Origin: Candidatus Gottesmanbacteria bacterium
GTDB taxonomy: Bacteria > Patescibacteriota > Microgenomatia > UBA10105 > UBA927
Reading direction: 5' to 3'
Length of the DNA stretch: 64,000 bases
Assembly (NCBI GenBank): GCA_963714095.1
Contig: OY970230.1
Location: 831,907 to 895,906, forward strand
Under the pieces are notes generated by a model that was not told the origin of the DNA, searched no databases, and saw only the letters and a program-made list of their open reading frames with translations. How positions within the stretch are numbered: position 1 is the stretch's first letter; the number at the start of each line of letters is the position of its first letter. Made by a program: the position numbers and the translations under genes. Below, piece by piece: positions 27,257-36,200 of the stretch.

Positions 27257-30200
27257 ATGACTCCGCCCCCGGGCGGTCTTGTCATTTTATTGGGATGGAT
27301 TTTGGTAGCCTCAAAACACAGATTTTACAAGTTTTTACAAGTCCGTACAAAAAATTTTACTCATTCGTACCGGTTTGTACAAGTGGAAACAGGAGCTATT
27401 TCAATTTTTGCGGTATTGTTTATCGGCATCATCGTATCGGTAGGCATTCTTCTTTTCAGGAACAGCATTAAAATTCCGGTTCACCTGACTTCCGTAGACG
27501 CCCAGCAACCGCAAACGACCGTTCCGGTGCCGCTGTCGGCACTGACTGCAGATGTATTTGCAAAGAGCGATTTTTCCGGTCCGTTTCTTGTCGTGGTTAC
27601 CCGGACAGACGGTTCCTATTCCTATGCGGTTGTGGATCAGGGGGGGCTGGTGAACGGTCATTTTGACGGAGACGTGACGGTGCATTATTCCAACGGCGAT
27701 TACGGCATCATAAAGCAACAGGCGGATACGTCCGTTCTGTTTATGACAAAAAAAGGAACTGAGGAAACGGTGTTTATTACGTATCCGCTTATTGCCGCTA
27801 TACGACTCCCTGATGGGACGATGTTGCCGGTTGAATTTACTGATGCGACGATCCGCGACGGAGCACTGGTCGGCGCGTTCCGGTTACTCGAATTTGCTGA
27901 CCAAAAACAGGTGACGGGGTATGTTGCACCGCGGGGTGAGCTCTCGGATTTGACTGCAACACCGACATTGACGTCACCGGATCCGGCAACGCTGTTGACA
28001 GAGCGGGAAATACTGAAATTATATTTTGAAATAACGGGCAATGATAACGCTAATGTGTTGGGTGTTACCACAGACGATAACAGCAATGAAGGATCGCTGG
28101 ATGTTCAACCGGGAGGCATGGTTTCAAGTGCGATTGTGGCTCAAAGAAATGCTAATGACGGCACCGTCCGGCTTGTTTCGGCGCCGGGTACTGCAGTAGC
28201 TTCGACCGGAAATTTATCGCAACTGATTCCGCAGCTTACCAGTGTCCAGGGGGAAGGATTAACCCAGCTTATTTCACAGATTGTTTCCGCGGGCGGAAAT
28301 ATTTCCGGAATCGGCAGTGCCGGTGAAACCGGTGCAACCGGGGCTGCGGGTGCTGCAGGGACAAACGGAACAAATGGGACAAACGGAACAAATGGAGCAG
28401 ATGGCGTTTCCGTTGTCGGCCCTACAGGGGCAACGGGGGCAGGAGCAACAGGTGCCACAGGCGAAGCTGGACCTACAGGAAATGCGGGTGAAACCGGTGC
28501 AACCGGGGAGGCGGGTGCGGGAGGCAGTGGCGGACCAACGGGTGCGACAGGACCGACAGGCGATGCAGGTGAAATCGGTGAAACAGGCGCGGCCGGATCA
28601 ATAGGAAACACGGGAGCAACAGGCGCAAATGGCGAAGCCGGTTTTACCGGTGCAACAGGTATTGCAGGTCCCACGGGTTCAACCGGAGCAACGGGTTCTG
28701 CCGGATTCACTGGCCCGACAGGTGCAACAGGAGCTACGGGAATAACCGGAGGAGCAGGTCCGACGGGATCAACAGGAGCAACAGGAATAGTGGGAACTTC
28801 AGGCCCCACAGGATCAACAGGAGCAACAGGGAATACGGGTGGTGTTGGTGCCAACGGTTCCACGGGAGCAACAGGGAATACTGGTGCTGGCGGAGCCAAC
28901 GGTCCCACAGGAGCTACCGGAACAACGGGTTCTGTCGGAACTAACGGTCCTACGGGAACAACAGGAGCAACCGGTGCAACCGGAACAGCCGGTCCTACGG
29001 GAGCAACAGGAACCAACGGTCCGACAGGCGCAACCGGAGGCGCAGGTGCTAATGGTCCAACAGGTGTTACGGGTTCAACGGGTGCCACCGGTGTTGCCGG
29101 TCCTACGGGAGCAACAGGCGGGAACGGTCCCACAGGAGCTACCGGAGGAGCCGGATCAAACGGACCTACGGGATCTACCGGAACAACAGGATCTGTAGGG
29201 AGTAATGGTCCAACAGGCGTTACGGGTTCAACCGGTGCCACCGGAACAGCCGGCCCTACGGGAGCAACAGGAACCAACGGTCCCACGGGCGCAACCGGAG
29301 GCGCAGGTAGTGGTGGAGCAAACGGTCCCACCGGAACAACCGGTTCTACCGGTGCCACCGGTGTTGCCGGTCCTACGGGAGCAACAGGAACCAACGGTCC
29401 GACAGGCGCAACCGGAGGCGCAGGTGCCAATGGTCCAACAGGTGTCACCGGATCTACCGGTGCCACAGGAGGAGCCGGAACCAACGGCCCCACAGGAGCT
29501 ACCGGAGGGGCAGGCAGCGGAGGAACCAACGGACCCACGGGAACAACCGGATCCACAGGAGCAACAGGAGGAGCTGGATCCAATGGTCCCACCGGAGCTA
29601 CCGGAGGCGCAGGATCCGGAGGAGCCAATGGTCCCACGGGAACAACCGGTTCAACAGGAGCCACCGGTGTTGCCGGTCCTACGGGAGCAACGGGAACCAA
29701 CGGTCCGACAGGCGCAACCGGAGCAACGGGTGTTGCAGGACCGACTGGGAGTACAGGATCAACGGGCGCAACCGGGTCCGCAGGACCAACAGGATCAACA
29801 GGAACCACTGGAGGTGGTGGTACCAATGGACCGACCGGTGCTACAGGGGGAACTGGAACTATAGGTGGTGGAGGACTTGGACCAACTGGCCCAACTGGAA
29901 ATACTGGAGCTACAGGATCTGCAGGAGCAATTGGTGTTACCGGCCCATCAGGTTCAACCGGAGCAACCGGTGTTGCGGGTCCCACCGGAACAACCGGTTC
30001 AACCGGTGCCACCGGAACAGCCGGTCCTACGGGAGCAACAGGAACCAACGGTCCGACAGGCGCAACCGGAGGCGCAGGTAGTGGTGGAGCAAACGGTCCC
30101 ACCGGAACAACCGGTTCAACCGGTGCCACCGGAACAGCCGGTCCTACGGGAGCAACAGGAACCAACGGTCCGACAGGCGCAACCGGAGGCGCAGGTAGTG

Positions 30201-33200: not shown

Positions 33201-36200
33201 ACAGGAACCAACGGTCCGACAGGCGCAACCGGAGGCGCAGGTAGTGGTGGAGCAAACGGTCCCACCGGAACAACCGGTTCAACCGGTGCCACCGGAACAG
33301 CCGGTCCTACGGGAGCAACAGGAACCAACGGTCCGACAGGCGCAACCGGAGGCGCAGGTAGTGGTGGAGCAAACGGTCCCACCGGAACAACCGGTTCAAC
33401 CGGTGCCACCGGAACAGCCGGTCCTACGGGAGCAACAGGAACCGAACGGTCCGACAGGCGCAACCGGAGGCGCAGGTGGGAGTGGTGGAGCAAACGGTCC
33501 CACCGGAACAACCGGTTCAACCGGTGCCACCGGAACAGCCGGTCCTACGGGAGCAACAGGAACCAACAGGTCCGACAGGCGCAACCGGAGGCGCAGGTGC
33601 CAATGGTCCAACAGGTGTCACCGGATCTACCGGTGCCACCGGAACAGCCGGTCCTACGGGAGCAACAGGAACCAACAGGTCCGACAGGAGCAACCGGAGG
33701 CGCAGGTGCCAATGGTCCAACAGGTGTCACCGGATCTACCGGTGCCACCGGAACAGCCGGTCCTACGGGAGCAACAGGAACCAACGGTCCGACAGGCGCA
33801 ACCGGAGGCGCAGGTGCCAATGGTCCAACAGGTGTCACCGGATCTACCGGTGCCACCGGAACAGCCGGTCCTACGGGAGCAACAGGAACCAACGGTCCGA
33901 CAGGCGCAACCGGAGGCGCAGGTGCCAATGGTCCAACAGGTGTCACCGGATCTACCGGTGCCACCGGTGTTGCCGGTCCTACGGGAGCAACAGGAACCAA
34001 CGGTCCGACAGGCGCAACCGGAGGCGCAGGTGCCAATGGTCCAACAGGTGTCACCGGATCTACCGGTGCCACCGGAACAGCCGGTCCTACGGGAGCAACA
34101 GGAACCAACGGTCCGACAGGCGCAACCGGAGGCGCAGGTAGTGGTGGAGCAAACGGTCCCACCGGAACAACCGGTTCAACCGGTGCCACCGGAACAGCCG
34201 GTCCTACGGGAGCAACTTAAACCGGCAGGACTGACAGGCGCAACCGGAGGCGCAGGTGCCAATGGTCCAACAGGTGTCACCGGATCTACCGGTGCCACCG
34301 GAACAGCCGGTCCTACGGGAGCAACAGGAACCAACGGTCCGACAGGCGCAACCGGAGGCGCAGGTAGTGGTGGAGCAAACGGTCCCACCGGAACAACCGG
34401 TTCAACCGGTGCCACCGGAACAGCCGGTCCTACGGGAGCAACAGGAACCAACGGTCCGACAGGCGCAACCGGAGGCGCAGGTGCCAATGGTCCAACAGGT
34501 GTCACCGGATCTACCGGTGCCACCGGAACAGCCGGTCCTACGGGAGCAACAGGAACCAACGGTCCGACAGGCGCAACCGGAGGCGCAGGTAGTGGTGGAG
34601 CAAACGGTCCCACCGGAACAACCGGTTCAACCGGTGCCACCGGAAAAACTAGTCAGTTACGGGAGCAACAGGAACCAACGGTCCGACAGGCGCAACCGGA
34701 GGCGCAGGTGCCAATGGTCCAACAGGTGTCACCGGATCTACCGGTGCCACCGGAACAGCCGGTCCTACGGGAGCAACAGGAACCAACGGTCCGACAGGCG
34801 CAACCGGAGGCGCAGGTAGTGGTGGAGCAAACGGTCCCACCGGAACAACCGGTTCAACCGGTGCCACCGGAACAGCCGGTCCTACGGGAGCAACAGGAAC
34901 CAACGGTCCGACAGGCGCAACCGGAGGCGCAGGTAGTGGTGGAGCAAACGGTCCCACCGGAACAACCGGTTCAACCGGTGCCACCGGAACAGCCGGTCCT
35001 ACGGGAGCAACAGGAACCAACGGTCCGACAGGAGCAACCGGAGGCGCAGGTAGTGGTGGAGCAAACGGTCCCACCGGAACAACCGGTTCAACCGGTGCCA
35101 CCGGAACAGCCGGTCCTACGGGAGCAACAGGAACCAACGGTCCGACAGGCGCAACCGGAGGCGCAGGTAGTGGTGGAGCAAACGGTCCCACCGGAACAAC
35201 CGGTTCAACCGGTGCCACCGGAACAGCCGGTCCTACGGGAGCAACAGGAACCAACAGGTCCGACGGGAGCGACCGGAGGCGCAGGTAGTGGTGGAGCAAA
35301 CGGTCCCACCGGAACAACCGGTTCAACCGGTGCCACCGGAACAGCCGGTCCTACGGGAGCAACAGGAACCAACGGTCCGACAGGCGCAACCGGAGGCGCA
35401 GGTGCCAATGGTCCAACAGGTGTCACCGGATCTACCGGTGCCACCGGAACAGCCGGTCCTACGGGAGCAACAGGAACCAACGGTCCGACAGGCGCAACCG
35501 GAGGCGCAGGTGCCAATGGTCCAACAGGTGTCACCGGATCTACCGGTGCCACCGGTGTTGCCGGTCCTACGGGAGCAACAGGAACCAACGGTCCGACAGG
35601 AGCAACCGGAGGCGCAGGTGCCAATGGTCCGAACGGGCGATACAGGAGCCACCGGTGTTGCCGGTCCTACGGGAGCAACAGGAACCAACGGTCCGACAGG
35701 CGCAACCGGAGGCGCAGGTGCCAATGGTCCAAACGGGCGATACAGGAGCCACCGGTGTTGCCGGTCCTACGGGAGCAACAGGAACCAACGGTCCGACAGG
35801 CGCAACCGGAGGCGCAGGTGCCAATGGTCCAACAGGTGTTACGGGTTCAACAGGATCGTCGAGAACAGGCGCTAACGGGCCCACCGGAAATACCAGTGCT
35901 CGGGGAACCAAAGGTCCCACAGACCACCGTAATCAAGCCTGGTGTACGGTCCTACAGGTGCAACAGGCGAGAGCGGTTCCACCGGTTCAACCGGCACAAC
36001 GGGTTCTGGCGGATCCAACGGTCCTACCGGTTCAACCGGCGCAACGGTTGTGGCGGATCCAACGGTCCTACCGGTTCAACCGGCAATGCGGGTGCGCTTG
36101 GCGCAACCGGCGGTGTGCTTCTGACGATGGGGAGCAACAACCTTATTTATCCGTATCCGGCGGTAGGATTAAGCTTTGCGCTCGGCGGCACCAACGGATC

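Follow-up and report, generated by a model that had tools for sequence, protein, structure and literature searches.

Among bacterial collagen-like proteins, BclA of the Bacillus anthracis and Bacillus cereus exosporium carries a Thr-rich stalk of the GXT/GPT type, in which the number of Gly-X-Y repeats reportedly varies between strains and sets the length of the filament (Sylvestre et al. 2003, as cited in PMC13188886), and which is also reported to be O-glycosylated (Maes 2016, cited there too). A Thr-rich collagen stalk of similar type is encoded within a stretch of 64,000 nucleotides, hereafter the window, from a Candidatus Gottesmanbacteria bacterium (GenBank assembly GCA_963714095.1, contig OY970230.1, positions 831,907 to 895,906 of the forward strand). 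Positions 28320–36110 of the window constitute the Gly-X-Y coding portion of a single + strand gene (27227–38900) of ~11.7 kb and about 3,890 codons, which starts with GTG at 27227 and ends with TAG at 38898–38900, the latter placed by matching the protein encoded on a sister assembly (L006). The product adds a new and unusually large member to the bacterial collagen-like surface fibres or adhesins, a class already known. In our assessment it is probable that this portion forms the stalk of a single, very large collagen-like fibre on the surface of an ultra-small bacterium of the Candidate Phyla Radiation (CPR), that its central tandem array was expanded by recombination, and that the frameshifts which break it up in the window are errors of the assembly.

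The likeness to BclA extends to the glycosyltransferase genes that adjoin the fibre gene, comparable with the O-glycosylation of the BclA stalk, and to the C-terminal domains of the fibre, which may be set beside the globular, trimer-forming C-terminal end of BclA. However, BclA is about 10 times shorter and is attached to the spore basal layer via an N-terminal targeting motif, whereas a predicted transmembrane helix would anchor the fibre; it also ends in a C1q/TNF-like domain and belongs to spore-forming Firmicutes, while the fibre belongs to CPR and has no match to such a domain. Neither a BclA-type C1q/TNF-like domain nor an exosporium-targeting motif gave a match in Pfam, NCBIfam or the PDB, and with the C1q-like domain missing and a different anchor, membership of the BclA family is ruled out.

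A second comparison is offered by Lcl of Legionella pneumophila, a surface adhesin in which, as in the fibre, an N-terminal region is followed by tandem Gly-X-Y repeats and a C-terminal domain. The polymorphic repeat number of Lcl correlates with binding and biofilm formation (PMC6460258). Lcl holds roughly 11–18 short units, whereas the fibre contains ~52 units of 36–39 residues in addition to ~550 divergent Gly-X-Y residues; Lcl has neither a lectin nor an SH3 tip and is not homologous to the fibre outside the collagen repeats. By analogy with BclA and Lcl, we infer that repeat number would set length or adhesion here as well. Pasteuria, an obligate host-associated bacterium, possesses collagen-like surface fibres implicated in host attachment and strain-specific infectivity (PMC7743900), and resembles in this the role proposed here. 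These Pasteuria collagen-like proteins (PCLs) are many small paralogues from a different phylum, whereas a single giant gene is found here, and the likeness is one of description. In the pre-neck appendage protein gp12 of phage phi29, a C-terminal auto-chaperone module assists trimer assembly. The beta domain that follows the fibrous part of the fibre has a similar fold (PF11962, 3GQH), although the auto-chaperone of gp12 is terminal and the fibre continues with further domains.

Long uninterrupted runs of Gly-X-Y triplets characterise the stalk, with glycine at 328 of the 328 third positions in the clean array, and the units of the sister assembly match Pfam Collagen (PF01391) with an E-value of 2.7e-106. 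The stalk comprises ~2,600 Gly-X-Y residues, of which 26% are Thr, 7% Pro and 1% charged, and its computed length is ~740 nm if fully extended (0.286 nm per residue). At the DNA level it divides into a divergent part and a tandem array, the latter delimited with Tandem Repeats Finder (TRF), and the features on which the following account draws are:

28322–29977, + strand: divergent Gly-X-Y region of ~550 residues, including proto-units
29978–35840, + strand: homogenised tandem array of ~52 units, defined by TRF, unit walk and within-type identity
30143–31033, + strand: 891-nt AAABBBBB block, copy 1, with the marker pattern C, A, C, C+TGTT, C
33189–34085, + strand: 891-nt AAABBBBB block, copy 2, with the same marker order and extra inserted bases in the window
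31080–36050, + strand: frame-shift zone with 1–4-nt insertions, +A at unit position 24 and partial 9-nt A/B indel calls at position 54

TRF returned a 117-nt period with 49.9 copies (29978–35619) and a 108-nt period with 48 copies (30461–35839). Units were resolved by semi-global unit-by-unit alignment, apart from those of contig L005, which was too noisy for a unit walk and was compared by BLAST alignment. The ~52 units are of two types, A with 117 nt (13 triplets, 39 residues) and B with 108 nt (12 triplets, 36 residues), which are set apart by a single 9-nt indel and some ten substitutions and follow one another in the order AAAABBBBBAABAAAAABBBAAABBBBBAAABBBBBABABABAAAAABBBBB, with three 99/100-nt unit variants at the 3′ end of the array. 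DNA identity within each type is 98.8–99.6%. Measured against the A and B units, identity is at most 75% at 28.3–28.9 kb, 76–78% at 29.46–29.98 kb and ~99–100% from 30026 onwards, and proto-units at 28994, 29255 and 29372 are 90–95% identical to the units of the array. Codon usage follows the same division, the peptide GPTGATG being written in 13 different encodings among 17 occurrences in the divergent part versus 3 among 45 in the array.

Duplication is also evident above the level of the unit. The first AAABBBBB block matches the clean version of the second, taken from L006, at 890 of 891 positions, the two copies lying about 3.05 kb apart. The orthologue on a 1.29-Mb contig of the Joint Genome Institute (JGI), L010, has a Gly-X-Y region of 2,072 residues with a self-similarity of only 65–78% by TRF, and that of another genome, L012, is similar, so homogenisation and expansion are specific to this lineage. 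A 35-nt core of the unit was not found by exact search of JGI metagenome contigs, and no other tandem arrays were found within the window. Homogenisation is at the DNA level, not merely the protein level: identity exceeds what protein constraint would impose, whole blocks are duplicated and related lineages lack the effect. The initial annotation had described concertedly homogenised 108/117-nt higher-order repeats with divergent copies at 28.3–28.9 kb, and in both respects the TRF periods, the unit walk, the block duplicates and the identity profile bear it out; the near-identity that it assigned to 7 kb is likewise real but extends over 5.9 kb.

The same annotation had stated that no stop codon occurs in any of the six frames, which is not the case. 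Between 28320 and 36110 there are 43 stops in the forward frames (14, 16 and 13) and 179 in the reverse frames (81, 48 and 50). An error-free A unit is open in three frames only (forward 0, forward +1 and reverse +1), a TAG from GGTAGT closing forward +2, while an error-free B unit is open in five of the six. The clean 2.5-kb array of contig_73729, the sister assembly, holds 0, 0 and 11 stops in its forward frames and 11, 0 and 44 in its reverse frames, where composition shuffles lead one to expect ~18 per frame. The two alternative-frame peptides that had been quoted are exact +1 and +2 readings of the units, and the attribution of the many long spurious open reading frames (ORFs) to repeat composition stands, as such ORFs occur on both strands and have been called in antisense in two public assemblies. 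The open antisense frame gives an ORF of 992 codons in the window and one of 1434 codons in L010. Public gene calls on L007 (12858–14525, 555 residues) and on L010 (708 residues) have picked minus-strand ORFs over the collagen gene, because Gly-X-Y DNA leaves three to five frames open, and the intact 3161-codon + strand ORF of L010 (2729–12214) is not annotated as one gene. This serves as a warning for annotation, since long-read consensus errors at this locus give plausible but artefactual Pro/Glu/Gln-rich or Arg-rich "proteins" rather than truncated ORFs. An ORF of 1541 codons (32131–36756) stays open in the window despite many shifts; on a rough estimate it needs no special explanation, because only A units hold a stop, in one forward frame, and these units are confined to a few runs.

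It had further been proposed that any indel silently switches the product from one polypeptide to another. This does not hold, as A units carry the TAG in +2, the units are multiples of 9 in length (108, 117 and 99 nt) and the shifts are absent from contig_73729. Both this proposal and that of six open frames owe much to errors in the assembly. A change of copy number accordingly never shifts the frame, because of these unit lengths. A frameshift-type contingency locus would combine a unit length that is not a multiple of 3 with frame changes reproducible across assemblies, whereas the changes seen here are absent from contig_73729 and only partly shared with contig_55471 within the array.

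The glycine frame of the window is constant from 28322 to ~31080–31100 and then changes ~20 times up to 36.0 kb, with a garbled patch at 35850–36050 and further shifts downstream at 36605, 37932, 38445 and 38642. Nearly all changes relative to the unit consensus are small insertions. An additional A at unit position 24 occurs seven times, turning CCAACGGT into CCAACAGGT, a sequence found elsewhere in the B unit; 1–3 extra bases fall exactly at unit position 54, the site of the 9-nt difference between A and B, and an additional C is seen at position 72. Comparison of assemblies suggests that these ~20 frameshifts are most likely consensus errors of this assembly and not a property of the gene, because the sister assembly is frame-perfect and the orthologue in a related genome is intact. 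ENA contig_73729 (552 kb, ERZ25039480; L006 and L007) is 99.35% identical to window positions 32990–53494, and in it L006 1134–7064 forms one ORF of 1976 codons, with perfect Gly-X-Y through 25 units followed by the whole C-terminal region. These units have the same A/B order as the last 25 of the window and nearly the same markers, and contain no frame-shifting indel.

The distribution of the differences points in the same direction. Between 36100 and 49844, the window stands alone at 58 of 73 variable sites, contig_55471 and contig_73729 being concordant, and its private changes form clustered patches of mismatches and indels (for example 35852–35863, 35922–35946, 39183–39199 and 40088–40159). 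They include many indels, with 57 gap columns as against 76 mismatches across 20.5 kb. The comparison with contig_55471 reveals whole 9-nt A/B switches beside partial versions of 7 or 8 nt, a pattern expected when a consensus is built from reads that are mixed or out of register. Window-private patches in the unique sequence of 36100–40800 also split a dockerin-like gene on the minus strand (~38.9–39.7 kb), and a PMT_2-like ORF is read as 300 and 312 residues in the window versus a single 717 residues in contig_73729. The frameshifts fall within and shortly after the array, in the interval 28.7–48.6 kb over which assemblies of this population differ, and outside this interval the window is accurate. 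Its alignment to the short-read Logan contig L008 spans 13.7 kb with 2 mismatches and no gap; up to 29008, its identity to L008 and to L009, another short-read contig, is at least 99.9% with 0–1 gaps, and between 48.6 and 53.5 kb it shows zero differences from contig_73729.

Were the frameshifts real, the gene would be a decaying pseudogene or, in essence as the initial annotation proposed, a contingency locus switching between Gly-X-Y, Pro/Glu/Gln-rich and Arg-rich frames. Such a view may appeal to the fully open +1 frame, to the +2 frame that is open in B units, to the survival of the 1541-codon ORF and to several insertions that repeat at a given unit position and occur in contig_55471 too. 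It is nevertheless very improbable, considering that the same units are frame-perfect in contig_73729 and the orthologue is intact, and that the clustered private changes also break the dockerin-like and PMT_2-like neighbours. The number of indels relative to mismatches is the reverse of normal divergence, the partial 9-nt indels point to mixed pile-ups, and units in multiples of 9 mean that the repeat mechanism cannot drive phase variation. An association of the window-private errors with a methylation motif was considered separately, some lying at GATC or GATATC, and was rejected, their sequence contexts showing no consistent motif.

The number of units differs between assemblies. The array of contig_73729 corresponds to exactly the last 25 of the 52 units of the window, with 27 units (~3.06 kb) fewer. 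At its junction, unique sequence equivalent to window 29900 is joined to the middle of a B unit, without the lead-in of 29901–30025 and with a +2 insertion; the join itself (CCAACTGGAGCAACCGGAGG) is noisy, non-homologous and specific to this contig, and the surrounding stretch is only 96.4% identical to the window. Features of this kind point to a collapse or mis-join more than to a clean unequal crossover. From 31933 to the end of the array, and by extrapolation from about 30450, contig_55471 runs collinear with the long version; its A/B type differs from the window at several units within 32.0–32.95 kb. In this species, short-read contigs end at window 29008, and the contig of a 70%-identical relative (L004) ends at the homologue of ~29890, about 100 nt before the start of the array.

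An assembler could have inflated or otherwise mis-built this array, the true form having ~25 units or some other number and no real length polymorphism. The 25 units of contig_73729 would fit, as would the two 99.9%-identical 891-nt blocks ~3.05 kb apart, a structure that assemblers mis-handle, and the noise of the region in every long assembly. We regard this as unlikely, as contig_55471, being collinear, speaks for an array no shorter than 5.4 kb, the unique 29901–30025 lead-in is missing from the short version, whose frameshifted, noisy, non-homologous junction resembles a collapse, and the breaks of the short-read contigs and of L004 before the array suggest a long, unresolvable repeat. 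The difference of 52 versus 25 units is compatible with polymorphism of length and composition, at the level of assemblies inseparable from collapse. The suggestion in the initial annotation that fibre length is hypervariable between strains gains tentative support from the two unit counts and from the A/B differences in contig_55471, but the noisy junction of the short version would also fit an assembly collapse.

A separate observation concerns the extent of the variable segment. ENA contig_55471 (24,288 bp) has its first base within the array and its last at the array start, and it joins window 49844 directly to 25190 (L001 7929|7930) with no homology at the join, and every difference between the window and contig_73729 falls within 28730–48593. 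For the 24.6-kb fibre-plus-glycosylation segment 25190–49844 this could mean tandem duplication, circularisation or variation between strains, unless contig_55471 is chimeric.

Outside the collagen region, the gene is organised as follows:

27227–38900, + strand: giant collagen-like fibre gene, fragmented into many ORFs by at least ~20 frameshifts in the window
27395–27458, + strand: predicted N-terminal transmembrane helix (Kyte–Doolittle maximum 2.95 over 19 residues)
27459–28321, + strand: N-terminal non-collagen domain of ~290 residues, with few homologues and a weak Big_2 hint only
36110–37054, + strand: post-collagen region with short repeats of the 'TINIG' type, a window frameshift at 36605 and no Pfam match
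37055–37493, + strand: conserved beta domain (ADYSEYI...), resembling the phi29 gp12 C-terminal auto-chaperone by AlphaFold2 and Foldseek
38235–38427, + strand: H-type lectin domain (PF09458, E 1.2e-9), found in L006 too
38712–38897, + strand: C-terminal bacterial SH3_3 domain (PF08239, E 2.4e-10 on the L006 protein), preceded by a Pro/Thr-rich linker

The 3′ two thirds of the gene are unbroken in L006. An equivalent transmembrane helix is predicted in the L010 orthologue, and L004, a metagenome-assembled genome (MAG) from Lac Pavin sediment that is titled Candidatus Gottesmanbacteria, has a syntenic counterpart of the N-terminal domain with 70% identity. Neither this domain, beyond the weak Big_2 hint, nor the 'TINIG' region has a match in Pfam, NCBIfam or PHROGs. 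The SH3_3 domain matches PDB entry 4KRT, an autolytic lysozyme, being related to its cell-wall-binding domain. For the beta domain, AlphaFold2 gives a predicted local distance difference test (pLDDT) score of about 90 over residues 150–295, and the best Foldseek match in the PDB is 3GQH (E 6.2e-4, target template modelling score 0.55), with several phage capsid decoration proteins similar; the homologues P0006 and P0014 carry PF11962, for which the window protein lies below Pfam significance.

A resemblance to phi29 gp12 and to capsid decoration proteins raises the question of whether the gene encodes a phage tail fibre, or a collagen-like fibre borne by a prophage, instead of a cellular surface protein. 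Collagen-like repeats are common in phage fibres, and SH3_3 domains occur in phage endolysins too. The fibre gene nevertheless has no PHROG structural matches and falls in no PHROG tail-fibre family, generic PHROG matches being confined to the flanking HTH, glycosyltransferase and DeoR-like genes, and its surroundings are not a phage structural neighbourhood. With housekeeping and envelope genes on its flanks, synteny in at least four CPR genomes and a predicted N-terminal transmembrane anchor, a phage origin is hardly credible.

As a cell-surface fibre, the protein would be anchored by its N-terminal transmembrane helix and extend as a Thr-rich, low-charge Gly-X-Y triple helix of ~2,600 residues, roughly 0.7 µm when fully stretched. 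Its tip, made up of the trimer-associated beta domain, the H-type lectin and SH3_3, would bind carbohydrate or the cell wall of another cell or surface, and O-glycosylation of the Thr-rich stalk would probably be the work of the adjoining PMT_2, YfhO and GT4 genes. Unequal recombination or gene conversion would have expanded and homogenised the middle 5.9 kb, acting both on the 12- and 13-triplet unit types and on larger blocks, the 891-nt AAABBBBB among them, and gain or loss of units would alter fibre length while keeping the frame. What the sequences display directly is the anatomy of the array, its homogeneity in DNA, the domain content, an unbroken frame in sister and orthologous assemblies and unit counts that differ by assembly; the triple helix, trimerisation, glycosylation, adhesive role and true length polymorphism are what we infer. 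More tentatively, the protein might be a membrane-anchored, O-glycosylated collagen tether of an ultra-small CPR bacterium, up to ~0.7 µm in reach and longer than the cell, tipped with lectin and SH3 and capturing or holding the host, with its reach tuned within populations by gain and loss of 36/39-residue units (52 versus 25) and with the 24.6-kb segment 25190–49844 perhaps duplicated or strain-variable; we would call this conceivable rather than expected. Host attachment is a central unknown of CPR/Patescibacteria lifestyles, and the fibre, being giant, conserved, lectin-tipped and flanked by a dedicated set of putative glycosylation genes, makes a concrete candidate for an attachment organelle, whose length the array would vary by a simple route that preserves the frame. 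A full-text literature search on collagen-like proteins in CPR, Patescibacteria and Gottesmanbacteria found nothing relevant.

Several points weigh against this account of fibre and frameshifts. About half of the single-base insertions within the array of the window are also present in contig_55471, which shows that they are not purely random noise; they could reflect systematic mis-polishing where repeats are identical, read data common to both assemblies, or genuine variants of the strain with the long array. Errors in the window also continue for ~5 kb into the unique sequence beyond the array, which simple repeat-induced mis-polishing fails to explain. Both the error interpretation and the estimate of array length derive from assembled contigs. 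On the side of the protein, AlphaFold2 is confident for ~150 residues only and the fold match is modest (E 6e-4), and we know of no member of this family in CPR for which adhesion, glycosylation or a triple helix has been demonstrated by experiment.

Two groups of genes border the fibre gene directly:

25284–27230, + strand: HTH_17 plus dCache_1 gene (Pfam), 648 residues, whose stop overlaps the fibre start by 4 nt
39967–43488, + strand: membrane glycosyltransferase-like genes (PMT_2-like, unknown and YfhO-like), downstream of the fibre gene

The 4-nt ATGA/GTGA overlap, with an upstream GGAGG box, is kept in the window, in L004 (~8122), in L010 (2729–2732) and in L012 (5979–5982). Among the homologues, the predicted proteins P0043 and P0108 join HTH_17/MerR domains to the fibre-family region, the former also carrying collagen and H_lectin. 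This suggests that the expression or regulation of the HTH_17-dCache_1 membrane sensor/regulator and of the fibre gene is coupled. Downstream, further PMT_2, methyltransferase, GT4 and DegT genes follow to 51157, and PMT_2 genes also adjoin homologues in L013. The flanks as a whole (mreB, glgA, GT4s, DegT, PMT_2) consist of chromosomal housekeeping and envelope genes.

Synteny at this locus extends to at least four CPR genomes, the Gottesmanbacteria MAG L004 among them, each with the HTH_17-dCache gene upstream, and L010 encodes an intact orthologue of 3161 residues with the same architecture. The C-terminal family extends across CPR (Gottesman-, Shapiro-, Peregrini-, Uhr-, Woyke- and Vogelbacteria and Saccharimonadales), and its members often carry Collagen, H_lectin and SH3_3 domains. 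By sequence comparison, the fibre gene is to be regarded as functional and conserved. In L012 (GCA_964442525.1, 5979–12484) the orthologous fibre gene is read as four ORFs of 438, 384, 432 and 827 residues. A GT4 gene on the minus strand is also split, with its C-terminal half at 48998–49600 and its N-terminal half at 49551–50135; as it is likewise split in contig_73729 (187 and 179 residues), this may reflect either a genuine pseudogene or an error common to both assemblies.

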